From positions 3,904,001-3,968,000 of the forward strand of contig CBDEFM010000002.1 of the NCBI GenBank assembly GCA_965237415.1: a stretch of 64,000 nt of DNA, written 5' to 3'. Each line of letters begins with the position of its first letter. Within the stretch, counting starts at the first letter, position 1. Under the pieces are notes generated by a model, which saw only the letters and a list, made by a program, of their open reading frames with translations, was not told the origin of the DNA and did not search any database. The DNA comes from Alphaproteobacteria bacterium (GTDB lineage: Bacteria > Pseudomonadota > Alphaproteobacteria > UBA828). Made by a program: the position numbers and the translations under genes. This document shows, one piece after another, positions 16,042-42,420 of the stretch.

Positions 16042-16322
16042 GCGTGGGGGCGTGACCGGGTCGGAGAGTACGCGAGCCGATCCAACACCGCCTGAGCGTC
16101 GGGAACAGAGCGCTGGCACGGGTTCCTCGCCACGGTCTCGGTCTGCGCGGTGCTCTTAGTCCATGACGGAAGCAAGGGGTCTCTCATCTTCTGGACCCCG
16201 AACCATTGTGCGGTGCACGGCGCGCGCCGCCGGCGCCAGGATTGCCCGCCATGCGGCGATCATTTTCCCGCGCGCGTGTCCGCGCGACACAGTGCCAGAG
16301 CACGCCGGGCACGGCAGATGCG

Positions 16323-17162
16323 ATGGGCGGACGCGCATCGGACGAGCTGTTGCCGGCCGCAATCCAGGACGCCGTCGCCGCAGCAATCGAGGACGGCTCC
16401 AGCCTGGACGAGATCGTGGCGCGCGTCCGCGCGGGCGACGGCGAGAGTTCGGTTTTGATCCCGCGCGCACGACGCTGCGCGCGTGCGCGACCTGCCGAGG
16501 GCCGCTGGGCCGAGCGCATGGACGGCCTGATTTGCCTGCAGCGCGAGGCCGTTCGCTTTGCCGAGGAATGGGAGCGCACGCGCGACCCCTGCGCCGAGGG
16601 GCTTAGCGCCCTCATCGCAATCGAAACCCTGCGAACGCTGGCGCTCTGCACGATGGCCGAGCTCGGCCAGCGCGCGGAGCCGGTGCCGACCGAGGACCTC
16701 GCCCGCCTCGCGCTCGCGCTCCATCGCATCGAAAGCGCCGACAGGCTCCGCATCGAGCGTGAGCAGGCGATGGCCGATGCCGCCGCGCACGCCGGGCCGG
16801 CCGCGCGCGCGGCCAGTATGACGCATGCCGAACGGGTCGAAACCGTCCGCCGGGCTCTCGAGGGGCACGTCTTCCCTGGGCGCACAGATCCGCCACCGTC
16901 GGAATCGGGGTGGGCCGCGGCCTCTCCCGCGGACTCCCCCGTCACCTCGCCGGACTCCACGCCCGAGTCACCTGCCGACGGCGGGGCGCAGGATGCATGG
17001 GGCGCAAGCGGGGCGCAGGATGTGTTGGACGCGCGCGGGGCGCGCGATACGTGGGACGCGCACAGGGCGCGGGATGCTGAGCTGAGACGGCGGGAGGCGG
17101 AAGGCCGACTCTGGCCGACCGACCCTCCCTTCTGCCCTGCGGAGTGGAGCGGGCCAGGGTGA
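16323..17162 (+). CDS. Phage Mu gp27/DUF3486-like protein with a low-complexity repeat tail
   Basis: MG..S..LLP..I...V..AI.DG.SLDEIV; IETLRTLAL..M; EDLARLALAL..IE.A matches the gp27 family pattern; no other phage genes nearby. Confidence 0.65.
   Translation: MGGRASDELLPAAIQDAVAAAIEDGSSLDEIVARVRAGDGESSVLIPRARRCARARPAEGRWAERMDGLICLQREAVRFAEEWERTRDPCAEGLSALIAIETLRTLALCTMAELGQRAEPVPTEDLARLALALHRIESADRLRIEREQAMADAAAHAGPAARAASMTHAERVETVRRALEGHVFPGRTDPPPSESGWAAASPADSPVTSPDSTPESPADGGAQDAWGASGAQDVLDARGARDTWDAHRARDAELRRREAEGRLWPTDPPFCPAEWSGPG
16983..17078 (+). repeat. 27-bp (9-aa) degenerate tandem repeat in the gp27-like tail
   Basis: GAQDAWGAS/GAQDVLDAR/GARDTWDAH/RARDA; units start at 16983, 17010, 17037, 17064. 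Confidence 0.75.
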
Positions 17163-17402
17163 GGCGGGGGGCTCCTCCTCCGCCGCGACCAGGCAGACGC
17201 GCGCCCGGCTCATCGTGCGGCCCGGATGTCTCACCGCGGCCGCGGTCTGCGCGCAGCCGGCGCAGTTGCCGTGCCGTACAGTGCAAGAGCGAACGGGGCG
17301 CGGCAGGCGAAGGCAGAGGAAAGCGGCCGCCTATTGCCGGGGCGGCTGGTGCCCGCAGCCCCCGCCGTCATCATGGAGGACCGCCGGCGGTTGTCCCCGC
17401 GG

Positions 17403-17470
17403 AATCCCACTTGTCCCACTTAATCCCACTTATCCCACTTAATCCCACTTAATCCCGGCGAATCCCGCCC
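17403..17470 (+). repeat. (A)ATCCCACTT tandem array, copy 1
   Basis: Five TCCCACTT units followed by AATCCCGGCG AATCCCGCCC; 9-10 bp period. Confidence 0.95.
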
Positions 17471-17516
17471 AAAGTTTATGTTCTGCGCGTATCGCGGGCC
17501 GTTGGCGGGCGCCGCT

Positions 17517-18830
17517 TCAGTGCCCGCGCCCTTCCGGAATGATGCCGCGCGGGCTGAAGCGCATGACGACGAGGAGGATGAGTCCCATGATGATGAGCCG
17601 CATGTAGGCGGCGCTGTCGAGCAGGTGAGCCCGGAGCGAGTTGTCCTCAGGCAGCCCTGCAGTGATCGCGTCCATCAGCCAGAACGCGGCGGGCTCGGCC
17701 TCGACCCACAGGAACCACACCAGGAAGCCGCCGAGCATCGCGCCCCAGTTGTTGCCCGAGCCGCCGACGATCACCATCACCCAGATCAGGAAGGTGAAGC
17801 GGAGCGGCTGGTAGCTGCCCGGCGTGAACTGCCCGTCGAGGGTGGTGAGCATCGCACCGGCGATTCCCATCACCGCCGCGCCCAGAACGAAGATCTGCAT
17901 GTGGCGCCGGGTCACGTCCTTGCCCATCGCGGCGGCCGCGTCCTCGTTGTCGCGGATGGCGCGCATCATGCGGCCCCAGGGAGAGTTCAGCGCCCGCTCG
18001 GCCAGCCATACGATCGCCATGAGGACGAGCGCGAAGAGCACCGCGTAGCAGAGCTTCACGAAGATGCTCGAACCCTGGATCGGGTCCGCCCCCAGCCAGT
18101 GCGCGAGATCGAGGAACCAGGGGCTCGCCTGCAGGTCGATCTCGTAGGGCACCGGCCGGTCGAGGCCGGTGACGTTCTTCACGCCCCGGCTGAGCCAGTC
18201 CTCGTTCTTGATGACGGTGATGACGATCTCGGCGATGCCGAGGGTGGCGATGGCGAAATAGTCGGCGCGCAGCCCGAGCGCGACCTTGCCGATGAGCCAG
18301 GCCGCGCCGGCGGCAAGCAGCCCGCCGAGCGCCCAGGAGAGGACGATCGGCAGGCCGGCGCCGCCGAGATAGCCGGTCCTGGCGCTGTCGACATGCTGGA
18401 TCGCATCGACCGCCGGGTCGAAGAAGATGCGGATGAGGAAGAACCCCCCGACCAGGAGGAGAACCGTCGCCGCCGTGCGCAGCGGACCCTTGCGCAAGAG
18501 GCGGCGCACCAGCACGACCAGCAGCACGATGCCTGCCAGCACGGCGAGCGCGAAACCGAGGCCCTCGCCGCCCGCCGCCCACGCATCCGCCACCGGCGCC
18601 TGCGAGACCAGAACGCCCGCCAGTCCGCCGAGCGCGGCGAAACCCATCACGCCGACGTTGAGCAGGCCCGCATAGCCCCACTGCATGTTGAGGCCGAGCG
18701 CCATGATCGCGGAGATCAGGCAGAGATTGAGGATCGAGAGGCTGACCACCCAGGACTGGCTGGCGCCGACCGCGATGAGCAGCAGCGCCATGGCGGCGAA
18801 GAGCGCCGGCGTGCGGAGCCCCGGCCTCAC
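17517..18830 (-). CDS. Branched-chain amino acid ABC permease (LivM-like)
   Basis: LGLNMQWGYAGLLN, LRADYFAIATLG, SPWGRMMRAIRDNE, VIVGGSGN. Confidence 0.92.
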   Translation of the reverse strand: MRPGLRTPALFAAMALLLIAVGASQSWVVSLSILNLCLISAIMALGLNMQWGYAGLLNVGVMGFAALGGLAGVLVSQAPVADAWAAGGEGLGFALAVLAGIVLLVVLVRRLLRKGPLRTAATVLLLVGGFFLIRIFFDPAVDAIQHVDSARTGYLGGAGLPIVLSWALGGLLAAGAAWLIGKVALGLRADYFAIATLGIAEIVITVIKNEDWLSRGVKNVTGLDRPVPYEIDLQASPWFLDLAHWLGADPIQGSSIFVKLCYAVLFALVLMAIVWLAERALNSPWGRMMRAIRDNEDAAAAMGKDVTRRHMQIFVLGAAVMGIAGAMLTTLDGQFTPGSYQPLRFTFLIWVMVIVGGSGNNWGAMLGGFLVWFLWVEAEPAAFWLMDAITAGLPEDNSLRAHLLDSAAYMRLIIMGLILLVVMRFSPRGIIPEGRGH

Positions 18831-19843
18831 GACAGCACCCGCCCGCGGAAGAGCCCGGTCGGGCGCACCAGCAGCACGACCACCAGGATGACGAAGGAGA
18901 TCGCGAGCTTGTAGTCGGTGGACAAGAGCTGGATGAGGCTGCTCGGCTCCCAGCTCTCGGGCAGGAGGTAGCGCAGGAACTTCTTGTAGGCGTATGTCAC
19001 CCCCGTCTCCGAGAGCGCCACGATGAAGGCGCCTGCGACCGCGCCCAGCGGATTGCCGATCCCGCCGAGGATCGCGGAAGCGAAGATGGGGAGGAGAAGC
19101 TGAAAGTAGGTGAACGGCTTGAAGCTCTTGTCGATGCCGTACATGGTGCCGGCCACCGCCGCCAGCGTGGCGGCGATCAGCCAGGCGTACAACACCACCC
19201 TGTCCGGGTTGACGCCGGAGAGCAGCGCCAGGTCCTCATTGTCCGAATAGGCCCGCATCGCCTTGCCGGCCCGCGTGCGGTGCAGGAACCAGAAGAGCGC
19301 CGTCACCGCGATCGCCGTGACGACCACCGTCAGCCCCTGGGAGAGCTTGATCGCGAGGCCTTCCTTCAGCCCGGTCGCGACCTTGAACTCGGAGGCCTTG
19401 ATCAGGAAGCGCGCCCCGTCGGCGAGCCGCCGGTCGTCGGGTCCGATGATGAAGCGGACGATACCCTGCAGCGCGAACATCACGCCGACCGAGGCGATCA
19501 GCAGGATCACCGGCGGGCTCCTGCGGCGCCGGTAGAAGCGGAAGACGAGGCGGTCCGCACTCAGGTTGAAGGCGGCCGTGGCCACGATGCCGAAGGGCAA
19601 GGCGATCAGCGCCGTCGGCAGCGGCGCGATGCCGACGTCCATGCCCTGGAGCCACCATGTCGTCAGCAGAACCACCATGGTGCCGAACGCCATCACGTCG
19701 CCGTGGGCGAAATTGGCGAAGCGCAGGATGCCGAAGATGAGCGTAACGCCGAGGGCGCCGAGGGCGAGCTGGGAGCCGTAGGCGACGCCCGGCACGATGA
19801 CGAAGTTCGTCAGCAGAACGACCGCGTTCGCCACGTTCTCCAT
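18827..19843 (-). CDS. Branched-chain amino acid ABC permease (LivH-like)
   Basis: ALGVTLIFGILRFANFAHGD, RTRAGKAMRA, ILGGIG, RPTGLF. Confidence 0.92.
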   Translation of the reverse strand: MENVANAVVLLTNFVIVPGVAYGSQLALGALGVTLIFGILRFANFAHGDVMAFGTMVVLLTTWWLQGMDVGIAPLPTALIALPFGIVATAAFNLSADRLVFRFYRRRRSPPVILLIASVGVMFALQGIVRFIIGPDDRRLADGARFLIKASEFKVATGLKEGLAIKLSQGLTVVVTAIAVTALFWFLHRTRAGKAMRAYSDNEDLALLSGVNPDRVVLYAWLIAATLAAVAGTMYGIDKSFKPFTYFQLLLPIFASAILGGIGNPLGAVAGAFIVALSETGVTYAYKKFLRYLLPESWEPSSLIQLLSTDYKLAISFVILVVVLLVRPTGLFRGRVLS

Positions 19844-19846
19844 GGG

Positions 19847-20551
19847 CTACCCGCCGAGGAACGAGCGCCGCACTTCGGGATCGGAGAGGAGCGCCGCGCC
19901 GGTATCCGTGTGGCGGTTCTCGCCGGTGACGAGCACATAGCCCCGATCGGCGATGGAGAGCGCCTGGGCGGCGTTCTGCTCGACCATGAGGATGGCGATG
20001 CCGGTCGCGCGAATTTCCAGGATACGGTCGAAGAGATCGTCCATGACCACGGGCGAGACGCCGGCGGTGGGCTCGTCCAGCATGAGCAGCCGGGGTTCGG
20101 TCATCAGCGCCCGGCCGATCGCCACCTGCTGACGCTGGCCGCCCGAGAGCTCGCCGGCAAGCTGGCGCCGCCTCTCCTTCAGGATCGGGAAGAGGTCGAA
20201 GACCAGCGCCATGGTGTCGGCGACGCCGTCGTGGCGAATGTAGGCGCCCATCTCCAGGTTTTCCTGGACGGTCATGGTGGTGAAGACGTTGCGCTCCTGC
20301 GGCACGAACCCCATGCCCTTGCGCACGCGCTCCTGCGGGCTGAGCCGGGTGATGTCCTCGCCGTCGAGCCGGATCGCACCCTCCCGCAGCATGACCATGC
20401 CGAAGATCGCCTTCATGGCGGTCGACTTGCCGGCGCCGTTGGGGCCCACGATGACCGCGACCTCGCCCTGTTCGGCCTCGATCGTGCAGCCGCGAATGAT
20501 GTCCGCACCGCCGTAGCCGCCGGTCATCCCTTCGCCGGCAAGAAAGCTCAT
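19847..20551 (-). CDS. Branched-chain amino acid ABC ATPase (LivF-like)
   Basis: GPNGAGKST, LSGGQRQ, LDEPT, VEQN. Confidence 0.93.
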   Translation of the reverse strand: MSFLAGEGMTGGYGGADIIRGCTIEAEQGEVAVIVGPNGAGKSTAMKAIFGMVMLREGAIRLDGEDITRLSPQERVRKGMGFVPQERNVFTTMTVQENLEMGAYIRHDGVADTMALVFDLFPILKERRRQLAGELSGGQRQQVAIGRALMTEPRLLMLDEPTAGVSPVVMDDLFDRILEIRATGIAILMVEQNAAQALSIADRGYVLVTGENRHTDTGAALLSDPEVRRSFLGG

Positions 20552-21387
20552 GACACGCCGAGGCCGCGTCTCCGGCCGTGTCCAAGGTAAGAGTCGATCA
20601 CCCGATGATCCGCCTTGACCTCGTCCGGGGAGCCCTGGGTCAACACCTTGCCTTCGGCCATGACGATGACCGGCTGGCAGAGGCGCGAAATGAAGTCGAT
20701 GTCGTGCTCGATCATGCAGAAGGTGTAGCCGCGCTCCCGATTGAGGCGGAGGATGGCGTCGCCGATGCTTCGCAGCAGGGTGCGGTTGACGCCGGCGCCC
20801 ACCTCGTCGAGGAAGACGATCCTGGGCTCGGTCATCATCGTCCGTCCGAGTTCCAGAAGCTTCTTCTGCCCGCCGGAAAGGGCGCCTGCGCGCTCGCTCG
20901 CGACCTCGTCCAGGCCGAGGAAGTGGATGACGTCCGCCGCCCGGGCGCGGAGCTCCGCCTCTTGCGCGCGCACCCTGCCGCGGCGGAACCAGGCACTGAC
21001 CAGCTCCTCCCCGGCCTGCCCGGCAGGCACCGTCGTCAGGTTCTCGGCGACGGTGAGGCTCGAGAATTCGTGGGCGATCTGGAATGTGCGCAACACGCCC
21101 CGGTGGAAGAGCCGGTGCGGCTTCAGCCCGGTGATGTCCTCGTCCTGCAGGAAGACCCGGCCCTCGGAGGGCTGATAGACGCCGGCGATGACGTTGAAGA
21201 GGGTGGTCTTGCCGGCCCCATTGGGGCCGATCAGGCCGGTGATCGATCCCTCCGCGATCTCCAGGCTGACCCCGTCGACGGCGCGGATGCCGCCGAAATG
21301 CAGGTGAACATTCTCGACCCGGATCATGGCAGGCGCGGCGTCCGCGCCGCCTGCCGGGGCAGGGGATGCGGCCGGCGGCCCGGTCAT
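20548..21387 (-). CDS. Branched-chain amino acid ABC ATPase (LivG-like)
   Basis: GPNGAGKTT, RTFQ, LSGGQKKLLE, IEHD, VIDSYLG. Confidence 0.93.
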   Translation of the reverse strand: MTGPPAASPAPAGGADAAPAMIRVENVHLHFGGIRAVDGVSLEIAEGSITGLIGPNGAGKTTLFNVIAGVYQPSEGRVFLQDEDITGLKPHRLFHRGVLRTFQIAHEFSSLTVAENLTTVPAGQAGEELVSAWFRRGRVRAQEAELRARAADVIHFLGLDEVASERAGALSGGQKKLLELGRTMMTEPRIVFLDEVGAGVNRTLLRSIGDAILRLNRERGYTFCMIEHDIDFISRLCQPVIVMAEGKVLTQGSPDEVKADHRVIDSYLGHGRRRGLGVS

Positions 21388-21420
21388 CGCTGCCCGAGCC
21401 GCCGTCCCTGGTGCGCTAAC

Positions 21421-22629
21421 TTAACGGATGGCCTTGGTCACGAACTCACCACCCTCGACCTCAAGCTCCTTGTAGGACCCCGCAGCCTCGCCCACATCGG
21501 TGAACTCGACGCCGCTCGCCCCGACATAGTCGATCTCCCCGCCGTCGGCGAGGATCTGCAGTCCCTTGGCCAGCTCGCCCGGCAGGATCTGCTCGCCCGG
21601 TGCGTTGGCGACGGCCATGACGTGCGCCTGGATGGCGCCGCGATCGGCCGAGCCTGCGGCCTGCATGGCGAGCGCGATGAGCGCCGCGGCATCGTAAGAC
21701 TCACCACGGAACGGACCATCGCCTTCCACTCCGTTGGCGGCGGCATGATCGAGGAACATCTGGGCGCCCTCGGATGCGGAGCCCGGCACCGTGCCGATCG
21801 TGCCGTTCAGCGCGTCGCCGATTGCCTCGATCAGCGTGTCTCCGATCATGCCGTCGGCGATGACGAAGTTCTCGAAGGCGCCGGTGTCGACGGCCGTCTG
21901 GATGATCCCCTTGCCGCCCTGGTCGACATAGCCGAAGACGACCAGGTGTTCGGCACCCGAAGCGGCGAGTGCGCCCACCTCGGCCGAGTAGTCGCCCTTG
22001 CCGTCCTCGTGGGCCGCCGAGATTTCGACGGTGCCGCCGAGGGCGGTGAAGGCGTCGCTGAAGCTGCCGTCGAGCCCCTTGCCGTAGTCGTTGTTCGTGT
22101 AGGTGACAGCGACGCTGTCGATGCCGCGCTCGATCAGGATTTCGGCCATCACCTGCCCCTGCCTGGCATCGGAGGGCGCGGTGCGGAAGAAGAGGCCGTT
22201 GTCCTCGATCGTGGTGAGTGCCGGCGAGGTCGCCGACGGCGAGATGGTGACCACGCCATTCGGCACCGAGACGTTGTTGGTGATGGCGATGGTGACGCCG
22301 GAACAGTCGGCGCCGAAGATCGCGGCGACCCCTTCGGCGGTGACCAGACGCTCCGCTGCGGCCGTGGCTGCGGCCGCGTCGATGCAGGTCGAATCGCCCC
22401 TGACCGGCACAAGCACCTTGCCGCCCAGGAAGGCGCCGGAGTCCGATGCTTCCTTCAAGGCCAGCTCCGCCGAAGCCCCCATGGCGGGCGTCAACGACTC
22501 GATCGGGCCGGTAAAGCCGAGGATGACCCCGACCTTCACCTCGTGGCCGTCGGCCTTGGCCTCCGGCGCCATTCCAAGACACAGCGCGGCGGCAGCCGCG
22601 ACGAATGCAACCCACCGTATTCTGCTCAT
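21421..22629 (-). CDS. Branched-chain amino acid ABC substrate-binding protein
   Basis: Signal peptide; GFTGP, GADCSG, ISPSATSPALT, FRTAPSD, YDA. Confidence 0.92.
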   Translation of the reverse strand: MSRIRWVAFVAAAAALCLGMAPEAKADGHEVKVGVILGFTGPIESLTPAMGASAELALKEASDSGAFLGGKVLVPVRGDSTCIDAAAATAAAERLVTAEGVAAIFGADCSGVTIAITNNVSVPNGVVTISPSATSPALTTIEDNGLFFRTAPSDARQGQVMAEILIERGIDSVAVTYTNNDYGKGLDGSFSDAFTALGGTVEISAAHEDGKGDYSAEVGALAASGAEHLVVFGYVDQGGKGIIQTAVDTGAFENFVIADGMIGDTLIEAIGDALNGTIGTVPGSASEGAQMFLDHAAANGVEGDGPFRGESYDAAALIALAMQAAGSADRGAIQAHVMAVANAPGEQILPGELAKGLQILADGGEIDYVGASGVEFTDVGEAAGSYKELEVEGGEFVTKAIR

Positions 22630-22846
22630 GATGCGTGCCTCCCTGTCCTCGGGTCGCGACCGCACGCCCCAACGATGTCCCGGCGCGCCGGCCGGTTGGC
22701 CAATCATAGCGCGGTTCGCACCGCGATTCGAAGAGATTGGGGCCGCCGCTTCCATTCCGATAGGCGTTGGCGACGGTCTGCGCGTTGACGGGTGGCGGGG
22801 CAGGGACTATCTCTCAGGCCAAGTGGCGCATCAGACGGATGACGCG

Positions 22847-27198: not shown

Positions 27199-27455
27199 CG
27201 CTGCTCTATTTCGCCTGGGTCAGGGAGCAGATCGGCCGCGATGCCGAGGAGATCGCGCTCCCCTCGGACGTTCAGACGGTGGCGGCGCTGCTCGACTGGC
27301 TGCGGAGCCGCGGCGGCGGCTATGCCAGCGCGCTCAATGACCTCTCGGTGATCCGGGTCGCGGTAAATCAGGAATTCGCGGCACCCGACCATGCGGTCGC
27401 CGATGGCGACGAAATCGCGCTCTTCCCGCCGGTGACCGGTGGAGCCCCGTCGTGA
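27195..27455 (+). CDS. moaD: Molybdopterin synthase small subunit
   Basis: LYFAWVRE, AVNQ, DEIALFPPVTGG; in-frame APS extension after the GG. Confidence 0.93.
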   Translation: MTLLYFAWVREQIGRDAEEIALPSDVQTVAALLDWLRSRGGGYASALNDLSVIRVAVNQEFAAPDHAVADGDEIALFPPVTGGAPS

Positions 27456-27910: not shown

Positions 27911-27970
27911 CTGCGCCGCTGCAGCGGCCCCAATTCGTACACCCCCTCGCGAGACGGACAGCACTCTCGT

Positions 27971-28915: not shown

Positions 28916-28924
28916 CAGCGCCCT

Positions 28925-33838: not shown

Positions 33839-33911
33839 GGCGCTCACTGATGGTAGGCGGGTGGGCAGAAAGCGGTTGCACTCCTTAGCATCGGCCTGCA
33901 TATAAGTCAAT

Positions 33912-34394
33912 GTGACTGACGTAAAGGCCGGGCCGAATCCGCTTTACCTGCGCGAGGATCAGCTTCACGAGGCGATGGAGCTGCTCTTTTTCGCGTATCG
34001 GGACTTTACGACCGAGTGCGATGCGATCCTGGCGTCCTACGGCTTCGGGCGTGCGCATCACCGGGTCGTCTATTTCGTCGGCCGCAATCCGGATATCTCG
34101 GTTACCGCGTTGTTGGAGATTCTGAGGATCACCAAGCAGAGTCTGTCCCGAGTGCTCGGCCAGCTGGTGCGGGAGGGGTTCGTGACGACCCGGCAGGACC
34201 CTGCCGACGGGCGTCGCCGATTGCTGACGCTTACCGCGAAGGGGCGTAGCCTGGAGGGCCGGCTCTCCGCGACCCAGCGGGCCCGTATTGCCAAGGCCTA
34301 TCGCAGCGCCGGCGGTGTCGCCGTGGAAGGATATCGGGAGGTCTTGATGGGAATCATCGACGAGGCAGACCGGCGCCGCTTCGAACGACCCTGA
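33912..34394 (+). CDS. MarR-family regulator (PetP-like)
   Basis: ELLFFAYRDFT, GRAHHR, LRITKQSL.RVL, DGRRRLL.LT. Confidence 0.92.
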   Translation: MTDVKAGPNPLYLREDQLHEAMELLFFAYRDFTTECDAILASYGFGRAHHRVVYFVGRNPDISVTALLEILRITKQSLSRVLGQLVREGFVTTRQDPADGRRRLLTLTAKGRSLEGRLSATQRARIAKAYRSAGGVAVEGYREVLMGIIDEADRRRFERP

Positions 34395-34440
34395 GGGCGG
34401 GGTGTCGAATCGGCCCAGCCGGCGGGGGGGCGATGCGTCG

Positions 34441-35175
34441 ATGAACGGCGAGAGCGCGGCTGCGGGCACAGCCCGGCGCGAGGCGCCTCCGGCCGAGGCA
34501 GCGCATATTCTGGTGGTGGACGACGACGACCGCCTGCGCACGCTGCTCGGCCGCTATCTGCGAGACAACGGTTATCACGTCTCCTCCGCCAGCTCGGCCG
34601 CCGACGCGCGGGCCAAGCTCGACGGCATGGCCTTTGACCTGATCGTGCTCGACGTCATGATGCCGGGTGAATCGGGCATCGACTTCACGCGCGGGCTACG
34701 CCGCTCGACCACGGTCCCGATCCTGCTGCTCACGGCCATGGGGGAGCCAGAGGACCGCATCGCCGGGTTGGAGAGCGGGGCTGACGATTACTTGACCAAG
34801 CCCTTTGAGCCCCGCGAGCTGCTTCTGCGCGTTGCCACCATTCTGCGACGTACCGCCCCGCCGCCCTCAGCGCTGCCTGCGACGTGCATCAAGATCGGCG
34901 AGTTCCGCTATTTTCCGGCGCGGGATCAGCTTCTGCGCGGCGATGAGCAGGTCCGGCTGACGACGGCCGAGGCCGGCCTCCTCCGTGTCTTTGCCGCCAA
35001 TCTGGGACAGACGTTGAGCCGGCATGCGCTCAGCCAACGGCTCGGCGGAAGCACATCGCGGCGCGCCATCGACGTGCAGATCGCCCGGCTGAGACGCAAG
35101 ATCGAGCCGGAACCCCAAAATCCCTGCTATCTTCAGACCGTCTGGGGCCGGGGCTATGTTCTGCGGGCCGATTGA
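34441..35175 (+). CDS. OmpR-family response regulator
   Basis: VVDDD, LDVMMPG, LTA, GADDYLTKPF, RAIDVQIARLRRKIE, TVWGRGY. Confidence 0.93.
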   Translation: MNGESAAAGTARREAPPAEAAHILVVDDDDRLRTLLGRYLRDNGYHVSSASSAADARAKLDGMAFDLIVLDVMMPGESGIDFTRGLRRSTTVPILLLTAMGEPEDRIAGLESGADDYLTKPFEPRELLLRVATILRRTAPPPSALPATCIKIGEFRYFPARDQLLRGDEQVRLTTAEAGLLRVFAANLGQTLSRHALSQRLGGSTSRRAIDVQIARLRRKIEPEPQNPCYLQTVWGRGYVLRAD

Positions 35176-35205
35176 GCCGCTCCGTCCGCTCCGCGAGGAA
35201 GCGTC

Positions 35206-36534
35206 ATGAGTTTGTTGAGACGTGTCACGCCGCGCGGTCTGTTCTGGCGCTCCTTCCTGATCATGCTGATCCCGCTCGTCCTGGTTCAGGCGACGGTCGC
35301 CTACATATTCTTCGAGCGTCACTGGGATACGGTCAGTCGCCAGTTGGCGATGGACGTCACCGGCGACGTCGTCACCATCATGCGCATGGCCGACGCTGCA
35401 TCGGGCCCCGAAGAGCGCACCGCTATCGATCGAATCGCCCGCAGGGAGATGCAGTTCGGCGTTGTCTTCGAGGATGGCGCGGTTTTGCCCGACGACTCTC
35501 CCAATCGGTTCGACCGCACCATCGACGCGACGCTACACCGGCAGCTCGAGAAGCGCCTCACTGTCCCCTACCATCTCAACACGCAATTGCCCGACAAGCG
35601 GATGACAATTCGCGTCCAGCGACCGGACGGCGTGCTGACCCTGGTGACGACGGTCAAGCGCATGCGGGAGTCGACCACGGTTCTGGTCATTCTGTGGATG
35701 GTGGGCACGGCGATCGTGGTCTCGGCGATTGCGGTCCTTTTTCTGCGCAACCAGATACGCCCGATCCGGCGACTGGCGGCTGCTGCCGACGCGCTGGGCA
35801 AGGGCAGGCCGGTGACCGACCTCAATCCCTCGGGCGCGACGGAGATCCGGCGCGCGGGCGCGGCGTTCCTGGAGATGCAGGGGCGGATCCAGCGTCAGAT
35901 CGCCCAGCGCACCGAGATGCTGGCCGGGGTCTCTCACGATCTGAGGACACCGCTCACCCGAGTGAGATTGCAGCTCGCCATGCTGGCCGATGCGCACCCC
36001 GGCTCGCGTCAAGAGATTACCGAATCCGAGCAAGACCTGCTGCTCATGGAGCACATGATCGACGAATACATGGCCTTCGCCCGCGGTCAGGGCGGGGAGG
36101 CGCCGGTCAGCACCGATCTCGCCGAAATCATCGACGATGTCGCGGGCGATGCGCGCCGCAGGGGCAGCTCCATCGTGCTCGAGGTCGAGCGGCCGCTGAT
36201 CCTGGCTCTCCGGCCGAATGCCATCCGCCGCTGCCTGACCAATCTGGTCGAGAATGCCATGCACCACGGCGCACGGGTCGCGATCAGCGCCACTCGCCGG
36301 GATGACGTCGTCTCGGTCGCGGTCGAGGATGACGGACCGGGCATCCCGGTGGACCAGCGCGAAGACGTGTTCAAGCCGTTCTTCAGGCTGGATAGCGCCC
36401 GCAATCCGCGCACCGGCGGGGCCGGTCTCGGCCTCTCGATCGCACGCGACGTCGCCCGCGGGCACGGCGGCGATATCCGCATGAGCGGCGGCTCGCTCGG
36501 CGGCCTTCGCGCCGAACTTCGACTGCCGGTCTAA
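35206..36534 (+). CDS. EnvZ-like sensor histidine kinase
   Basis: Two TM helices and HAMP; SHDLRTPLTR, NLVENA, DDGPG, GAGLGL. Confidence 0.93.
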   Translation: MSLLRRVTPRGLFWRSFLIMLIPLVLVQATVAYIFFERHWDTVSRQLAMDVTGDVVTIMRMADAASGPEERTAIDRIARREMQFGVVFEDGAVLPDDSPNRFDRTIDATLHRQLEKRLTVPYHLNTQLPDKRMTIRVQRPDGVLTLVTTVKRMRESTTVLVILWMVGTAIVVSAIAVLFLRNQIRPIRRLAAAADALGKGRPVTDLNPSGATEIRRAGAAFLEMQGRIQRQIAQRTEMLAGVSHDLRTPLTRVRLQLAMLADAHPGSRQEITESEQDLLLMEHMIDEYMAFARGQGGEAPVSTDLAEIIDDVAGDARRRGSSIVLEVERPLILALRPNAIRRCLTNLVENAMHHGARVAISATRRDDVVSVAVEDDGPGIPVDQREDVFKPFFRLDSARNPRTGGAGLGLSIARDVARGHGGDIRMSGGSLGGLRAELRLPV

Positions 36535-36562
36535 ACCCCCTCGGCGGATACTGCGCCGGACT

Positions 36563-37210
36563 CTATCCGGCTTCCTCTGCGGGCTGGGTATCGCGCCAGT
36601 CGCGCCTCGGCGCGAAACGGCAGAGAGTGCGCGTGAGCCTGTCGAGGCGTCGCAGCCGCCTGTCGAGCACAGCCATGGTGCGCGCCATGTCTTCGCTGTC
36701 GTCGCGTAGCCAAACTGGAAGCATGGAGAGGTAGAGCGCCGACAGCGCCTTGACCCGAAGCCCGCCTTGCAGGCCTGCGCTGCTCAAGTCGGCAGCTTCC
36801 AGCATCCAGCGCATCGAGCGCCGCAGCGTCAGCGGACCGCACAGGATTGCCTCCGGGTCCGACGGGCAGCTCCGCATGATCGCGCCAACCCCTTCCTTGT
36901 GGGCATTCAGCAGGTCAAAGCGCTTCATGAGGACATCGAACAGGCGCTCGGTAGCCGGGCGCCCGGCCATCTCAGGGTCCCGCACCGCCAGCACCTCGCG
37001 GTCTATGGCCGCGGCATAGGCCGCGACGATGGCGCTCTTGGAAGAAAACGCGGCGCGCAACTCGGCGAGGGAGACCTCCGCCGCCTCGGCGATGTCGCCC
37101 AACCCGACCCGCGACCAGCCGCGGCTCGCGGCCAGTGTCAGGGCACTCTCGATGATGGCCTGAGGCGCGTCCTTGCGCTTGCCGGCCCCCGGTGCAGTTT
37201 TCCTCGGCAT
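36563..37210 (-). CDS. TetR/AcrR-family regulator-like protein
   Basis: N-terminal HTH (LGDIAEAAEVSLAEL..F.SK), ERLFDVLM.RF, DMARTMA.LD. Confidence 0.8.
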   Translation of the reverse strand: MPRKTAPGAGKRKDAPQAIIESALTLAASRGWSRVGLGDIAEAAEVSLAELRAAFSSKSAIVAAYAAAIDREVLAVRDPEMAGRPATERLFDVLMKRFDLLNAHKEGVGAIMRSCPSDPEAILCGPLTLRRSMRWMLEAADLSSAGLQGGLRVKALSALYLSMLPVWLRDDSEDMARTMAVLDRRLRRLDRLTRTLCRFAPRRDWRDTQPAEEAG

Positions 37211-37306
37211 GGTCCTGCGCCTCTTCGCCGCCAGTCCCCGAAGTGTAGGCCGCGGGAAAACCGAGCGTCAACACGGCCGGCGTCGGTGTCTCAGCCGCGG
37301 GTGCGG

Positions 37307-38128
37307 TTAGGCCGGGGCGAGGGCGCGGGAACGTTCGGCGGCGGCGCGAACCGCGCGGCTCATCAGCGGGGCAAGCCCGTCCGTCGCCATCAGGACCGAG
37401 AGCGCGGCTTCGGTCGTGCCGCCCGGACTGGTCACGTTGCGGCGGAGCGTGGCGGCGTCCTCTTCGGATTGAGCAAGCAGCGCGCCTGCACCGCTCACCG
37501 TGCGGTCGGCCAGCGTGCGGGCCAGGTCGGCGGGTAGTCCGGCATCGATGGCGGCTTCGGCCAGGCATTCGGCGAGCAGAAAGACGTAAGCCGGTCCGCT
37601 GCCGGACACGGCCGTCACCGCATCCATGAGGGCCTCGTCGTCGATCCAGGCGACCGCGCCCACCGCCCGCAACAACGCCTCGCAGAGCGCTTGCTGATCG
37701 CGGTCGGCGGCCCGGTTGGCCCAGGCGACGGTCATGCCTTCGCCGATGGCGGCGGGCGTGTTGGGCATGGCGCGGACGATCGGCACAGCACCCAGATCGC
37801 GCTCCAGCAAGCGTACAGGCCAGCCGGCGGCAATCGAGAGGTGAACGGTGTCCGGCCCACCGATGTCGGCGTAAGGGGGCACGACCTGGGCCATCACCTG
37901 GGGCTTGACGGCGTAGACGATCGCCGCCGGGCGCAGCGTGCCGGGAAGCGCGGTGGGCGCCGGAACGCATGTCGCGCCGAGCGGTGCCAGACGCTGAGCC
38001 GTGCCGTCGTCCGGCTCGACGATGGCGAGCCGCGCGGCTTCGAGCGGCCCGCGCAGCCACCCTGCTGCAAGAGCGCTGCCCATCCTGCCGCCGCCGACCA
38101 GGAGGATATCGCCGGAAATCGCCGTCAT
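37307..38128 (-). CDS. proC: Pyrroline-5-carboxylate reductase
   Basis: GGGRMG, AVKPQ, SIAAG, RAMPNTP, TAVSGSGPAY, VTSPGGTT. Confidence 0.96.
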   Translation of the reverse strand: MTAISGDILLVGGGRMGSALAAGWLRGPLEAARLAIVEPDDGTAQRLAPLGATCVPAPTALPGTLRPAAIVYAVKPQVMAQVVPPYADIGGPDTVHLSIAAGWPVRLLERDLGAVPIVRAMPNTPAAIGEGMTVAWANRAADRDQQALCEALLRAVGAVAWIDDEALMDAVTAVSGSGPAYVFLLAECLAEAAIDAGLPADLARTLADRTVSGAGALLAQSEEDAATLRRNVTSPGGTTEAALSVLMATDGLAPLMSRAVRAAAERSRALAPA

Positions 38129-38631
38129 CAGGCTGACCCGCGCGGCTCCATGAGGGCCGCTTCGAACGCAGTTTCGGGCGCGAGCTCCGTCCCGACCACT
38201 TGCTCGAATGCCGGATAGAAGCGCTCGCACTCGCCCACTCCGACCGTCACGAGATCGACGACCTGAGGGTCCTCCACGCCGTCTGTGCCGCGCAACAGCA
38301 GCGCGTGGCGCCACGTTGGCCTGCCTTCCTCGGCCCAGAGATCGAAATGGCCGATCCACAGGCTCTCGTTGATCAGGTTGATCAGGGCGCCGACCGCCCG
38401 GCGCCGGTCGTCCGGGACGCGCATGTCGAATCCGCTGGCGAAATGCAGGACGTCGAGGTCGGCACGGTAGGCGAACCAGAGCTCATAGTCGCACCAGCCG
38501 CCAGCGAACGAGCCCGTGATGTCCTCGTCGCCCATGCGTTCGAACGAGAGACGGCTGGCCATCATGACCCGCTCGACAGCGTCGAGCGCATCGCTCGCCA
38601 GGCGCTCGGAATGTACTAGTGTCAACGCCAT
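38128..38631 (-). CDS. YbjN-domain protein
   Basis: G.WCDY, INESLWIGHFDLW, ECERFYPAF; usual proC neighbour in Alphaproteobacteria. Confidence 0.85.
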   Translation of the reverse strand: MALTLVHSERLASDALDAVERVMMASRLSFERMGDEDITGSFAGGWCDYELWFAYRADLDVLHFASGFDMRVPDDRRRAVGALINLINESLWIGHFDLWAEEGRPTWRHALLLRGTDGVEDPQVVDLVTVGVGECERFYPAFEQVVGTELAPETAFEAALMEPRGSA

Positions 38632-38782
38632 CCCAACTCCCCACCGCTGCGGCGCCATATGCGGTATCCCAACGGAACCACCAGATATGGCGCCAACCAC
38701 AATAGGCTGTGTTGGAGCGCGAGAAAATCCCAAATGTTGAAAATCGGGCGCGACAGCGCGGGGGATTGGATTGCCAGCAGCG

Positions 38783-39340
38783 CTATGTCGGAAGCTGCGG
38801 CGGGGCGCCGCCGGGGAGGGGAATGCGATGCTCGTTCAGCGTCATCGCGATCATCGCGTAGTAGCCGTTGAGCGCCGTGAGCTCCACCACGCCCGCGGGC
38901 CCGAGCAGCGCCAGCGCCTTGTCGTAGGTCTCGTCGCTCACCGCGCGGTTGGTCTGCAGCTCGCAACTGAAATCGTAGACCGTCGCCTCGTCCTCTGCGG
39001 AGAGCGGCGGCGGCCGCCGGTGCTTGATCGCTTCGATCACCGTGTCGGGCAGGCCCGCCTGCGCGGCCTCCGGCGCGTGCCAGTGCCATTCGTACTGGCA
39101 CGACCAGTGGCGGGCGATCGCCAGGATCGCGAGCTCGCTGAGCCTGGGCGCGAGGCTGGTCTGGTAACGGAGGAGGGCGCCCAGCGCCTGGATGCGGTCG
39201 GCGAGCTCGGCATTGTGCAGGAATGCCATGAAGAGCGCCGGCACCGTGCCGCGCGGCCCGCTCTCGATCGCGTCGTAGACGCGGCGCTGGTCGTCCGAGA
39301 GCGACTCGACGCTGGGGAGCGGCAGGCGCCGTTCCGTCAT
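38783..39340 (-). CDS. Carboxymuconolactone decarboxylase/AhpD-like protein
   Basis: [27 protein letters not shown]...GYY. Confidence 0.85.
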
Positions 39341-39849
39341 GGTGCCGTTTCCTCGCCTTCCGCCGCCTCGCGCTCGGCGATCGGCGGCACGAAGCGCAGG
39401 TCCGTGTCCCAGGGGAAGAAGATCCACGTGTCCTGGCTGACCTCGGTCACGAAGGTGTGCGCCTCGGAGCGGCCCGCCGGCTTGGCGTAGATGCAGGCGA
39501 AGTGCGCGCGCGGCAGCATCTCGCGGACGATGCGGGCGGTGGCGCCGGTATCGGCGAGATCGTCGATGATCAGGATGTCCTTACCGTCGCCCGCGACCGG
39601 TTTCAGAACTCTCGCCGACCGCTGGTCCTGATGGTCGTAGGAGGAGATGCAGATGGTGTCGACCACGCGGATGTCGAGCTCGCGGGCGACGATCGCCGCC
39701 GGCACCATGCCGCCGCGAGTGACCGCCACGATGCTGCGCCAGGGGCCGCGCTCGGCCAGCCGCCAGGCAAGCGCGCGGGCGTCGCGATGAAGCTGATCCC
39801 ATGAAACGGGGAACCCTTTCTCGAACTTCTCCGTCATCTCGTCCGCCAT
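39337..39849 (-). CDS. gpt: Xanthine phosphoribosyltransferase
   Basis: [42 protein letters not shown]. Confidence 0.95.
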
Positions 39850-39996
39850 CCATCGATGTTGCCATGCCGCTCCCATGCAAGCCGACAACGGGCGGCCGGG
39901 CAAGGGGCGCGCGTAAGTCGCGACACAGTCGACGCAGGAGCCCGCAGGCTGCGCAGCGCCTTTCGATCCGGGCCCGATGCGGGTAAGAAGCGGCGC

Positions 39997-40902
39997 ATGA
40001 CCGACCGAGTGCGGGCGCTGCCGGGCAGCGAAGCCAAGACGCGGGCGCTCCTCGAGGAAGGGCGCTATGTCGCGGACGATGCGCTGGTCAAGACGCTCTT
40101 CCTGAGCTTCGCGCTGGGCCGCCCCCTGCTGCTGGAAGGGGAGGCCGGCTGCGGCAAGACACAGCTCGCCGCGACCCTTGCCGAGACGCTGGGCCGGCGG
40201 CTCCTCCGCCTGCAGTGCTATGAGGGCCTCGACGCATCGGCCGCCGTCTATGAGTGGAACTACGCTGCGCAGATGCTGGCGATTCGCCTGGCCGAGCGCG
40301 GCGGAACCGAGCGCGACGCGCTCGCCGAGGATATTTTCGGCGAGCGCTTTCTGGTCAAGCGTCCGCTGCTCACGGCGCTTGAGCCCGATCCCCTCGGCCC
40401 GCCGGTCCTGTTGATTGACGAGATCGACCGGGCCGACGCACCCTTCGAGGCCTACCTGCTGGAGGTTCTCTCCGAGTTTCAGGTGAGCGTGCCCGAGCTG
40501 GGCACGGTGACCGCTGCCGAGCGGCCGCTGGTCGTCATTACCTCGAACCGCACGCGCGAGGTGCATGACGCGCTCAAGCGGCGCTGCCTCTACCATTGGG
40601 TCGACTACCCCGACGCCGCGCGCGAGAAGGCGATCCTGCGCGCTCGCTTGCCGGGGGTCGAGAAACGGCTGAGCGACAATATCGCCGCCTTCATCGAGCG
40701 CATGCGGAGCGCCGATCTCTCCAAAGTATCGGGGCTGGGCGAGGTGATTGCGTGGTCGAGCGCCGTCATCGAGCTCGACCGGATCGAGCTCGACCCCGAG
40801 ACGATCCAGGCCAACCTCGAGCGCCTGCTGGCCTATCAACGGGGCCTCGCGGAGGCCAGCGGCCGCCCCCCGGGGCCCGTCCGGCCCGCGCCGCGGTCGT
40901 GA
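39997..40902 (+). CDS. MoxR-family AAA+ ATPase (CoxD-like)
   Basis: [46 protein letters not shown]. Confidence 0.9.
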
Positions 40903-42113
40903 CGACGGACCCGGTGCCGGTCGAGACGGAGGCGGGCGGCACGCTCGCCTACAACGTCATGCACTTCGTGCGGGGCCTGCGCGGCGCCGGCCTGCCGGCG
41001 GGGCCGGGCAAGACCATCGCGGCGGTGCGCGCCGTCGAGGCGGTCGATCCCACCCGCCGCAGCGATCTCTACTGGGCGCTCCACGCCGTCCTCGTCGAGC
41101 GGCGCGATCAGCACGACATCTTCGACCAGGCGTTTCACCTGTTCTGGCGCGAGATCCGCCTGCAGAGCGCGGTCCAGGGCCCGGTCATGGCGAGCGACAG
41201 GCTGCCCCAGCCCGAGGCACCGCCGGCGAGCCGGCGGGCCAGCGAGGCCATCGCCCCGCGCCTGCCCGACGAGGAGGAGAAACAGGAGAACGTCGAGATC
41301 GAGCTCGACGCGGTGCTCACCTTCTCGCCCCAGGAAGTGCTGCAGGAGATGGATTTCGAGGACATGTCGGCGGACGAGCTGGCCGAGGCGAAGCGGGCGA
41401 TTGCGGCGCTGAGACTGCCGATCAAGCCGGTGCCGACGCGGCGCTTCCGGCCCGACCAGCTCGGCCGGCGGATCGACATGCGGGCCACGCTCCGGGCGAG
41501 CCTGCGGTCGAGCGGCGACCTCATGCCGCTCAAGCGCCGCTCCCGCGCCGAGCGCCTGCCGACGCTGGTCGTGCTGTGCGACGTGTCGGGGTCGATGAGC
41601 CGCTACTCGCGCATGTTCCTGCACTTCGTCCACGCCGTGACCAACGACCGCGACCGGGTGCACAGCTTCCTCTTCGGCACGCGGCTCACCAACATCACGC
41701 GCTACCTCAGGCATCGCGATGTCGATGTCGCCGTCGGCAGTGCGAGCCGCGCCGTCCACGACTGGTCCGGCGGCACGCGGATCGGCCCCTGCCTCAAGGA
41801 CTTCAATCAATACTGGTCGAGGCGCGTGCTGGCCCAGGGCGCGCTGGTGCTGCTGATCACCGACGGGCTCGACCGCGACGATCTCGGCATTCTGCGGGTC
41901 GAGGTGGAGCGGCTGCACAAGTCCTGCCGGCGGCTCATCTGGCTCAACCCGCTGCTCCGCTACGAGGGCTTCAAGCCCGAGGCCGGCGGCGTGCGCACGA
42001 TCCTGCCGCACATCGACGACTTCCGTCCGGTCCACAACATTGCGAGCCTCATGGACATCGCCGCCGCGCTGAGCGCGCCTGCGGCTGCCGAGCAAGGCGC
42101 GGCCTGGGGCTGA
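40899..42113 (+). CDS. VWA-domain protein (CoxE-like)
   Basis: [34 protein letters not shown]. Confidence 0.9.
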
Positions 42114-42132
42114 CCCGGACTTCTCGCCACGG
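42109..42132 (+). repeat. 24-bp direct repeat, left copy
   Basis: GCTGACCCGGACTTCTCGCCACGG; 22/24 identical to 47118-47141. Confidence 0.85.
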
Positions 42133-42177
42133 CGGCTGCCTGAGTCGCACCCCGCGCGTCTTTCGTCCCCGTGCGAG

Positions 42178-42420
42178 GGCGCGGGATACGATCCGTACAT
42201 TAATTTTGTCCGGGATTCGCCGGGATTAAGTGGGATTAAGTGGGATAAGTGGGATTCCGCACGGGAAAGGGTCGCGCACGCTCGAAGGGTCGTGCGCGCG
42301 GTAGATAGGGTCGCGCCAGTCCGTTCATTCCGCCTCCGTCTGCCGAGCCCGCTCGCTCGTGCTCTGCAAGGCGCGAATCTGACGCGCACGGCGCACGCCG
42401 TGCAGCGCACCATGGTCCGG
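42178..42420 (-). mobile_element. Gene-less short derivative of the gp27-associated element
   Basis: Four blocks homologous to 16198-16229, 17287-17317, 16461-16492 and 17399-17500. Confidence 0.65.
42211..42256 (-). repeat. (A)ATCCCACTT tandem array, copy 2 (G-rich on + strand)
   Basis: CGGGATTCGC CGGGATTAAG TGGGATTAAG TGGGATAAG TGGGATT. Confidence 0.95.

Follow-up and report, generated by a model that had tools for sequence, protein, structure and literature searches.

Two related loci lie in the window, our term for the whole 64-kb stretch of DNA that was analysed: a gene-bearing unit on the plus strand (16196-17500) and a gene-less unit on the minus strand (42422-42114), with features as collected in Table 1. 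The left end (LE) of the gene-bearing unit is a sharply bounded stretch of about 55 nt that finishes in a Shine-Dalgarno sequence and a start codon, with the core GAACCATTGTGCGGTGCAC at 16200-18, AGGA at 16238-41 and the ATG of a gp27-like ORF at 16251. At 16196 the boundary is sharp, the flanks of 26 copies becoming unrelated exactly there. The gp27-like ORF is the only one in the unit with family support. Beyond the tail lies the stop codon of a convergent livM gene (17517-19), and similar tails were also found in the genome blocks L031, L006, L017 and L034.

The gene-less unit has a TTG (42369-42367) at the place of the gene-bearing copy's ATG, and 34 nt separate its left end from the start (42456) of a short-chain dehydrogenase gene that points away from it. 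Its N-terminal remnant module is common to many mini-copies. Its tail ends in the right-end motif CGCCGTGGCGAGAAGTCCGGG at 42134-42114, abutting the stop codon (42111-13) of a convergent VWA/CoxE gene; of 26 tails examined, 7 have this motif, for which 0.017 occurrences per 140 nt are expected, and it also stands by itself at 47123-47146. One weak terminator-like site lies antisense to the tail, at 42181-42196.

Table 1. Features of the gene-bearing and gene-less units, in window coordinates
Feature	Position	Strand	Evidence
Left end (LE), gene-bearing copy	16196..16250	+	LE profile matches 16197-16262, E 2e-12
gp27/DUF3486-like ORF, 303 aa	16251..17162	+	Pfam, PHROG, homologues
Hairpin module within ORF	16458..16492	+	8-bp stem, z -2.7
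Decayed second left end (LE') with 20-nt insertion, then gene N-terminal remnant	17204..17320	+	
Array, 8 ATCCC-core units spaced 9-10 nt	17403..17469	+	
A/T-rich tail with small CGCG-TAT-CGCG palindrome	17470..17500	+	30/40 identical to short copy
Left end, gene-less copy	42366..42422	-	LE profile E 7e-15; 28/32 identical to long copy
N-terminal remnant module (CAGAGCACGAGCGAGCGGG...)	42325..42365	-	25/31 identical to 17287-17317
Hairpin module, 8-bp stem	42268..42304	-	z -3.7
Array, 5 ATCCC-core units	42211..42256	-	
Tail: A/T-rich stretch, small hairpin, optional right-end motif	42114..42210	-	

Similarity of the two loci

The four blocks of similarity that the original prediction had noted between 16198-17500 and 42178-42420 were all recovered by direct alignment at the identities it gave, and three of them are significant in BLAST. 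Aligned to the reverse complement of the short locus, 16198-16229 matches 42389-42420 (28/32 identical), 17287-17317 matches 42329-42358 (25/31, with one gap), 16461-16492 matches 42270-42301 (29/32) and 17461-17500 matches 42178-42217 (30/40). The ATCCCACTT arrays of the two loci are identical at 43/43 positions, except for a length difference of 19 nt (two units). Self-BLAST of the 64-kb window retrieved inverted matches between 17422-17500 and 42256-42178 (87%, E 2e-22), between 16461-16492 and 42301-42270 (E 4e-6) and between 16197-16254 and 42421-42366 (79% over 58 nt, E 4e-6). The block 17287-17317 against 42329-42358 is absent from the self-BLAST matches of the window; its local alignment score of 18 was equalled by none of 5000 random 46-nt windows.

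A 16-nt array pattern has seven matches in the window, all within the two loci, with 0.23 expected, and the hairpin modules of the two loci are each other's only matches within the window. An LE profile built from 24 copies of other genomes only, with the window rows excluded, found exactly two window sites, the two left ends (E 7e-15 and 2e-12; next best 0.21). Chance similarity of the two loci is ruled out by the array-pattern count, self-BLAST, the LE profile and direct alignment.

The short locus had originally been described as a mosaic of the long one. Judged by its sequence, it is instead a collinear internal-deletion copy of the gene-bearing kind, as the order of the blocks agrees between the loci once 17204-17500 is read as a mini-copy in its own right, whose left end (LE'), the second of this locus, has decayed. 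That stretch aligns as a complete mini element (MAFFT with 12 mini-copies), the remnant after LE' starts CAGTGCAAGAGCGA..., and self-BLAST pairs 17278-17306 with 16289-16317 at 79%; the LE profile itself gave no match at LE'.

The gp27-like gene and its surroundings

The 303-aa ORF matches PF11985 (Phage_Mu_Gp27 / DUF3486), which we take to be the Mu gp27 family of putative small terminases, over positions 3-171 of 173 with E 8-9e-6. The match covers the whole model, as expected from the original assignment of the ORF to gp27/DUF3486, though its score of 26.6-26.8 bits falls just below the Pfam gathering cut-off of 28 bits. PHROG 426, 'terminase small subunit', is matched with 6.5e-7. The ORF has 498 homologues, and phmmer reaches canonical members of about 180 aa; of 45 relatives that were aligned, 42 have a PF11985 match, the best with E 3.7e-41, and 24 of 30 Atlas matches are PF11985 clusters. 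At the level of sequence, homology of the predicted protein to accepted PF11985 members is established through these relatives.

An AF2 model of the ORF protein is all helical, with pLDDT 72 (an earlier model from a shallow alignment was poor, at pLDDT 50.7). The protein has three helices in its N-terminal region, long helices besides, and a C-terminal extension missing from the canonical members of about 180 aa. A fold search with the pLDDT 72 model gave no matches at E<=0.001 in PDB and BFVD; the single sensible BFVD match is a DUF3486 protein (prob 0.80, E 0.07). Nothing relevant was found by a sequence search of PDB, and no match was given by defence-system models or by tblastn against phage and plasmid collections at E<=1e-5.

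Compared with Mu gp27 and DUF3486 proteins, the N-terminal ~170 residues are homologous, but the gene here lacks an adjoining large terminase or portal gene, is multi-copy on chromosomes, has no match in the phage collection at the tblastn threshold above, and encodes both a 12-residue N-terminal insertion and a C-terminal extension of about 100 residues. The insertion, LIPRARRCARAR, is encoded by the ORF's hairpin module and lies in the alignment at the S-RSAVGRY helix position of canonical gp27 proteins, so that the window subfamily has an altered sequence at a conserved segment of the canonical three-helix region. The same array sequence occurs in subfamilies without the insertion, which makes it less likely that the array is read by this helix.

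The original prediction had reported no large terminase, portal, transposase or integrase nearby, and this held: no such gene was found around the unit and there is no surrounding prophage. Large terminase, portal, Mu transposase A/B and head/tail genes were not found in the window, and a Pfam scan of 55 window ORFs found neither transposase nor integrase nor terminase, within the unit or outside it, bar a fragment of IS66, which lies 6.4 kb away. Between the two copies lie 25 kb of housekeeping genes (liv transporter, uvrC, pgsA, molybdopterin genes, LPS genes, proC). A tRNA search found none, Rfam gave nothing at gathering threshold in the window and nothing at E<=1 over the mini copy, no sigma-70-type promoters were found in either locus, and blastn of the mini copy against plasmids gave no match.

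A ClpP-like ORF with weak head-protease PHROG matches lies 0.5 kb upstream of the unit, outside the LE boundary. It would favour reading the unit as the remnant of a decayed Mu-like prophage, with repeats that are unrelated or due to chance, a reading to which we give next to no credence. The ClpP-like ORF has a GC content of 51%, against 72% for the gp27-like gene, and this contrast, together with the lack of phage genes among the window ORFs scanned, led us to reject a prophage remnant; the housekeeping genes between the copies, the presence of the family at many unrelated sites and similarities far beyond chance also stand against it. The orthologous locus in L031, a close relative, has the same gene and array, and its 8-kb block, which ends inside the gene, has no Mu genes; the original prediction had named a decayed Mu prophage in close relatives as grounds for abandoning it.

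A repeat family in uncultured Alphaproteobacteria

The two loci are members of a large family of intergenic repeats in uncultured Alphaproteobacteria, present in at least 29 blocks of 7 related alphaproteobacterial assemblies, all copy numbers from the genome scan being lower bounds. In 26 of the 29 related 8-kb blocks listed, an LE lies 100-400 nt upstream of an array in the same orientation, and 2 of the 29 blocks among the matches listed hold the gene; the LE profile had no match in the other 78 blocks, all of unrelated taxa. The plan of the unit is LE, optional gp27-like gene, phased array of 4-16 ATCCC units and A/T-rich tail, with the 8-bp-stem hairpin module in a subset of copies. The full gene is present in the window and in L031, and the block L057 has an LE and gene residues ~86-173 about 25 nt upstream of its array. 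The minis are 146-450 nt long and retain the ATG and the first codons of the gene. As the copies show, the ORF has been lost by internal deletion in most of them, with LE, start and first codons, array and tail staying. Small ORFs at the minis' ATG were considered as coding and rejected; they are treated as non-coding because their lengths and peptides appear unconserved by eye.

This census bears out the idea of gene-bearing and gene-less members that share both flanks, and far more copies were found than the two from which it had been drawn. The gene is not solitary, as had been supposed: at least 10 contigs carry 2-3 paralogues of it each. Full-text literature searches found no description of this repeat family, in agreement with the original prediction, which knew of no such system, and the family is apparently undescribed so far.

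Of the spacings between array units, 105 measure 10 nt, 60 measure 9 nt and 5 have other values. The array is downstream of the gene in 3/3 gene copies seen as DNA, and in 27 of 136 representative homologue clusters the ORFs continue into a translated ATCCC array (e.g. ...NPAESHLIPLNPGESRPENV). These 27 clusters are mostly 35-55% identical to the query, so the link between gene and array is old and ancestral rather than the result of a recent capture. Such age bears on the proposal that the gp27-like gene is cargo, with LE, hairpins and array being host-type, REP/BIME-like repeats moved by an unlinked enzyme. The long locus can indeed be read as a gene between an LE and an LE'-mini, a hairpin module is inserted into the gene itself, and the right-end motif can stand separately (the solitary copy above); but the conserved ATG of the LE is the gene's own start codon, minis retain the gene's first codons, and the array lies 3' of the gene even in these distant homologues. 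We regard the cargo proposal as decidedly improbable.

LE and array are not palindromic. No terminal inverted repeats were found between LE and the reverse complement of the tail (mean z 0.53, z>3 in 2/26) and no terminal direct repeats (z>3 in 1/26), and no target duplication was noticed on reading the flanks by eye. Both orthologous-site comparisons found the element present on each side, and block overlaps gave no empty site; mobility is therefore argued from copy number and nesting only; L075 contains a nested IS3 element, and in L081 two copies stand in tandem. Of the MITE-like pair originally proposed, what stands is that internal-deletion copies share both flanks; a transposase and terminal inverted repeats were not found. 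In the LE no conserved RNA fold was detected (consensus energy -2.07 kcal/mol, 1/5 pairs compensated), and its 19-mer core is identical between assemblies whose gp27 fragment shows 52% identity only.

Every copy lies in an intergenic region, where 15 of 23 face a convergent gene's 3' end; no rule of orientation relative to neighbouring genes was seen. On OZ253557.1 at least 7 plus-strand and at least 7 minus-strand copies are interspersed, with no polarity along the chromosome. Two genomes share an occupied orthologous site with flanks ~83% identical; there the middle of the element diverges, while LE core, ATG, array and GACCGTnGCG are conserved. All 22 proteins from multi-paralogue contigs have a closer relative outside their own contig, and the paralogues thus pre-date the sampled genomes. 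Such old paralogues and lasting copies fit a host function equally as well as an old selfish element.

One could accordingly suppose a domesticated host system, in which a gp27-derived DNA-binding family has a role in the cell, for example that of an architectural factor or of an insulator or terminator, and the LE-array units are kept as its binding sites. The old paralogues with closer orthologues in other genomes, the conserved modules of orthologous-site copies and a dN/dS of 0.42 for the gene, indicating some purifying selection, would suit such a system, as would the intergenic positions, 15 of 23 opposite convergent 3' ends, and the terminator-like site antisense to a tail. A regulon, however, would not frame each gene copy with LE and array, and it does not predict decaying gene fragments (L057 and many truncated clusters), nested IS and tandem copies, or minis in which the gene's start and first codons survive; nor is there an orientation rule relative to neighbours or along OZ253557.1. 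We hold domestication to be unlikely.

Proposed mechanism, related systems and meaning

The explanation that we favour, and consider rather probable, is an old family of intergenic repeats, autonomous/non-autonomous in character, whose master gene encodes a DNA-binding protein of DUF3486/gp27 type. A full unit runs from LE through the Shine-Dalgarno sequence and ATG to the gp27-like ORF, the phased ATCCC array and the tail. The gp27-like protein would be the element's own sequence-specific DNA-binding protein; judging from the sequence it probably binds the array, where it may oligomerise on ATCCC cores placed about one per helical turn, much as a small terminase does on a pac site. The nearly invariant LE core may be a second cis site that is read as DNA. 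As the unit encodes no recombinase, spread would require either an enzyme whose gene lies outside it or packaging and recombination, and the present copies would be mostly old and vertically inherited.

Packaging may also be taken as the unit's whole purpose. The unit would then be a packaging-signal cassette, with the gp27-like protein as small terminase, the ATCCC array as pac site and a helper Mu-like phage or GTA as the source of the large terminase; packaging would start at units and gene-less arrays, and units would spread by transduction and homologous recombination. In many pac phages, pac lies within terS or next to it. One Mu-like phage record encodes a canonical relative just upstream of Mu-type large terminase and portal genes, and the PHROG 426 match, the conserved gene-array link, the suitability of one core per helical turn for a ring oligomer, and persistence at orthologous sites without a recombinase, as expected of spread by flank recombination, all agree with packaging. 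Nevertheless, large terminase and capsid genes are absent from the window, the window protein has no tblastn match at E<=1e-5 in the phage and plasmid collections, and many new sites within one genome and the sharp LE boundary would go unexplained, so that we judge a packaging cassette improbable.

The favoured family resembles several known systems in part. Like IS/MITE pairs, it has few long gene-bearing and many short copies with both ends in common, the short ones being internal deletions of 146-450 nt between genes; unlike them, it lacks terminal inverted repeats, its flanks showed no target duplication to the eye, and its master gene encodes a terminase-small-subunit-like DNA-binding protein, not a transposase. 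REP/BIME, BOX and Correia-type repeats are modular intergenic mosaics, and the REP/BIME core is a palindromic unit with an associated RAYT transposase. The present family shares with them modularity, optional hairpin units, a variable number of internal repeats, intergenic positions often beside gene 3' ends, and long-lasting copies, but its array consists of direct 9-10-nt repeats instead of palindromic units, and no members of those families with a gp27-like gene are known. terS-pac modules are known in pac phages and phage-inducible chromosomal islands; there too, a cluster of presumed binding sites directly adjoins the gene whose product is the small oligomeric DNA-binding protein, whereas the putative module here comes without island, integrase or capsid-related genes and with dozens of gene-less site clusters across the chromosome. 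In ParR/parC-type centromeres, direct repeat arrays of ~10-11 bp adjoin the gene of the binding protein. Helically phased head-to-tail repeats adjoining the gene of a small helical DNA-binding protein are common to both, but here there is no partition NTPase gene, there are many copies per chromosome and the protein family is another.

Repeat families with long gene-bearing and short gene-less members are normally defined by a transposase. Here the sole gene encodes a DNA-binding protein of phage origin, and linked to it is an array, in phase with the DNA helix, of the sites that this protein probably binds; the family is also a marker for a clade of uncultured Alphaproteobacteria. Gene callers do not stop at the arrays, and some database proteins therefore end in spurious C-terminal tails, for instance ...SHLIPLNPGES.... 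Should binding to the array be confirmed, the family would offer a tractable case in which a chromosomal repeat family has taken over a phage packaging protein, or in which that protein itself acts as such a family, and sequence-programmed transduction could also be shown. Were packaging its function, the unit would be selfish, persisting and spreading by making the packaging motor of a helper phage or GTA start at it; the gene-less arrays would be dispersed pac sites that make large parts of the chromosome preferentially transducible, and the family would represent a class of mobile element whose defining feature is a packaging signal and not a recombinase.

Two related loci and the repeat family to which they belong

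The gene-bearing long locus and the gene-less short locus (taken as its reverse complement in all block comparisons) share four blocks of similarity, which direct alignment recovered exactly as originally predicted and at the identities claimed: 16198-16229 with 42389-42420 (28/32 identical), 17287-17317 with 42329-42358 (25/31, one gap), 16461-16492 with 42270-42301 (29/32) and 17461-17500 with 42178-42217 (30/40). Three of the four are significant by BLAST in a 64-kb search space (E 2e-22, 4e-6 and 4e-6), and the local score of the fourth was equalled in 0 of 5000 random windows. The arrays of the two loci match 43/43, the long one having two additional units, and a 16-nt array pattern occurs seven times in the window versus 0.23 expected, always within these loci. 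The block that is out of order in the predicted mosaic (17287-17317) is an N-terminal remnant module.

A genome scan by array pattern matched at least 107 8-kb blocks, and all counts for the family rest on the blocks listed. Seven alphaproteobacterial assemblies account for 29 of them (OZ253557.1, 14; CAXXVO01, 4; JAPPNV01, a Rhodospirillales MAG, 4; CBDEUT01, 3; CBDEUP01, 2; CBDAPE01 and JAJEBT01, 1 each), and the element therefore exists in more than two copies. The remaining 78 listed blocks, from unrelated taxa, contained no match to the conserved left end (LE). In 26 of the 29 blocks, LE and array share a strand, with LE 100-400 nt upstream; the exceptions are a block cut inside the gene (L031), one without LE (L053) and one with 5.9 kb between LE and the arrays (L086). 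Flank similarity stops exactly at the equivalent of window 16196 or 42422. The LE consensus, approximately CCCCGGACCATGGTGCGGTGCACGGCGCGCGGC....GCGCCAGGATCGCGCCATG, indicates that LE terminates in a Shine-Dalgarno-like AGGA and the start codon of the ORF. A profile of 24 LE copies from outside the window detected the two window sites (E 7e-15 and 2e-12), with no further site in the window below 0.2.

Only two of the 107 listed blocks matched the protein by tblastn: L031, with an orthologous full gp27-like gene, and L057, where LE is followed by residues ~86-173, ending ~25 nt upstream of the array. Judged from sequence, the gene-less copies (minis, consisting of LE, array and tail) are deletion derivatives of the gene-bearing kind. 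Minis are 146-450 nt long and have a conserved ATG (TTG or GTG in two copies), 3' of which some retain the opening codons of a gene of the window type and others instead carry a module matching the N-terminus of other subfamilies (MQNETRQT...). Since the right part of the long locus is itself a mini with a decayed left end (LE'), the long locus consists of LE and gene, followed by an LE'-mini. One mini is split by an IS3-family element (L075 6127-7602), two minis stand in tandem (L081 7458-7996) and one array has grown to 13 identical 9-nt units (L086 6870-6990), all signs of an interspersed repeat.

The gp27-like protein and its paralogues

The similarity of the ORF to Mu gp27 holds. Its match to PF11985 (Mu Gp27) spans the whole model, with an E value of 9e-6 and 26.6 bits, below the cut-off of 28, and PHROG 426 ("terminase small subunit") was matched at 6.5e-7; PF11985 was matched by 42 of 45 aligned relatives (best E 3.7e-41), and PF11985 clusters make up 24 of the 30 Atlas neighbours. 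A canonical relative of ~180 aa retrieved tblastn matches in 44 phage records. One of these, from a Shewanella Mu-like phage, was inspected, and there the gene for this relative immediately precedes those for the Mu-type large terminase and the portal. The window protein itself retrieved no tblastn matches at E<=1e-5 from the phage and plasmid collections. Compared with the canonical protein, the window subfamily has a 12-residue insertion, LIPRARRCARAR, at the aligned position of the canonical S-RSAVGRY, and an added C-terminal extension of ~100 residues with the invariant end WPTDPPFCPxEWSGPG. This invariant C-terminus faintly resembles the translated array. The AF2 model (45-row alignment, pLDDT 72) is all helical, with three short N-terminal helices (36-79) followed by long helices, and fold searches with it yielded no significant matches.

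A word-indexed search retrieved 498 homologues, the best 120 of which are 69-100% identical and ~300 aa long. The gene had been predicted to be solitary, which was not borne out: the window's own 4,035,330-bp contig has three of the listed paralogues, and at least 10 contigs, told apart by their length as a proxy for genome identity, have two or three each among the proteins listed. All 22 same-contig paralogues are closest to a protein from outside their contig (86.5-95.1%, versus 79.3-87.1% to paralogues), so the gene copies predate the sampled genomes; the database merges sequences >90% identical, which would hide recent duplicates.

The array, its link to the gene, and constraint

Each array contains 4-16 units with the constant core ATCCC, spaced by 10 nt (n=105), 9 nt (n=60) or other distances (n=5), which places the cores about one per helical turn. 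The array is followed on its 3' side by an A/T-rich stretch and then a small hairpin. Of 26 tails, 7 contain a right-end motif, GACCGTGGCGAGAA, versus 0.017 expected per 140 nt, and in the short locus this motif abuts the stop codon of a convergent gene. As it also occurs alone (reverse complement CCCGGACTTCTCGCCRCGG), it may be a separate module, an independent small repeat.

Among 136 clusters at E<=1e-3 from 1.84 billion representatives, many being fragments, 27 have predicted proteins whose ends are translated from the array and the first part of the tail (e.g. DPWNPAESHLIPLNPGESRPENV); these clusters are mostly 35-55% identical to the query, and six more regular-expression matches were set aside as not being array translations. 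The window array in the same frame reads PLNPGESRPK. The gene-array link is evidently old. Database ORFs (proteins P0143-P0249) often read through the array, and the C-terminal tails that result, such as SHLIPLNPGESRPENV, are artefacts.

The window and L031 have the locus in common. Their six flanking genes have a dS of 0.06-0.15 and dN/dS of 0.09-0.29, versus a dS of 0.25, dN of 0.10 and dN/dS of 0.42 (205 codons) for the gp27-like gene, which is therefore evolving faster than its neighbours or exchanging sequence with paralogues. The gene is nonetheless under some selection. Two genomes have a mini at the same site (L012 and L030, flanks ~83% identical), with LE core, ATG, array and GACCGTnGCG conserved and the middle diverged; this mini adjoins an apparent tRNA gene. 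Between assemblies with just 52% identity in the gp27 fragment, the 19-nt LE core does not differ.

Surroundings and nature of the element

The window has a GC content of 67%, and a Pfam scan of 55 ORFs found housekeeping genes throughout, with a liv-type ABC transporter, uvrC, pgsA, mobB, moeA, moaE, LPS glycosyltransferases, a two-component system and proC between the loci. As predicted for the vicinity of the gp27-like gene, no terminase, portal or integrase was found among these 55 ORFs, nor was a Mu transposase. The liv operon is absent from OZ253557.1 (L031 6765-6918 versus window 17760-22738), which keeps just a 154-nt livM fragment between array tail and uvrC; the element therefore borders a deletion there.

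Features of the two loci and their surroundings (window coordinates)
Feature	Position	Remarks
ORFs without family match	7483-9056	beside IS66 fragment
IS66-family transposase fragment	9266-9784	172 aa; Pfam 3.6e-18; sole transposase trace among scanned ORFs
Small ORF	14580-14840	phrog_3202; assigned to the 51% GC islet
51% GC islet	14900-15700	just left of long locus, outside the element's left boundary
ClpP-like ORF in islet	15124-15669	weak phage head-maturation-protease profile matches
Stretch similar to L019 6242-6412	15896-16068	80% identical; L019 stretch adjoins a mini
Different, REP-like hairpin GATGCCCGGAACAAGTCCGGGCATGACGG	16014-16042	also in L003 left flank; recurrent in related genomes
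Inverted right-end motif copy	16124-16137	59 nt left of long locus
Long locus	16196-17500 (+)	
gp27-like gene	16251-17162	303 aa
Hairpin module	16458-16492	coding sequence of 12-residue insertion
LE'-mini	17204-17500	aligns end to end with minis; LE' bears 20-nt insertion
Short locus	42422-42114 (-)	
Right-end motif alone	47123-47146	directly after amidohydrolase gene stop at 47122

The sequences show the organisation of an autonomous/non-autonomous repeat family. The original prediction of such a pair resembling a MITE stands as to family structure. Searches of the elements found neither inverted nor direct repeats at their termini, and no conserved RNA fold within LE, Rfam match or sigma-70-like promoter. 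On the OZ253557.1 chromosome, 7 copies lie on the plus and 7 on the minus strand, without polarity. Orientation relative to adjacent genes is not fixed either: beyond the array the gene is convergent in 15/23 cases, and before LE it is co-oriented in 16/25. Searches through the main text of openly available articles yielded no account of a system of this kind, in agreement with the prediction, and none of a small terminase with interspersed repeats or MITEs; nor did they find the array sequence in either orientation, and DUF3486, PF11985, Phage_Mu_Gp27 and "Mu gp27" led only to unrelated work, in the case of DUF3486 on a phage genome.

The unit, which encodes no recombinase, could have been multiplied by an enzyme encoded elsewhere or, as a second candidate, through packaging by a helper particle and then recombination. 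The main rival explanation is a maintained host function. The gp27-like protein probably binds the array, judging from the conservation of the gene-array link, the helical phasing of the cores and the presumed role of the protein family as small terminase in Mu-like phages.
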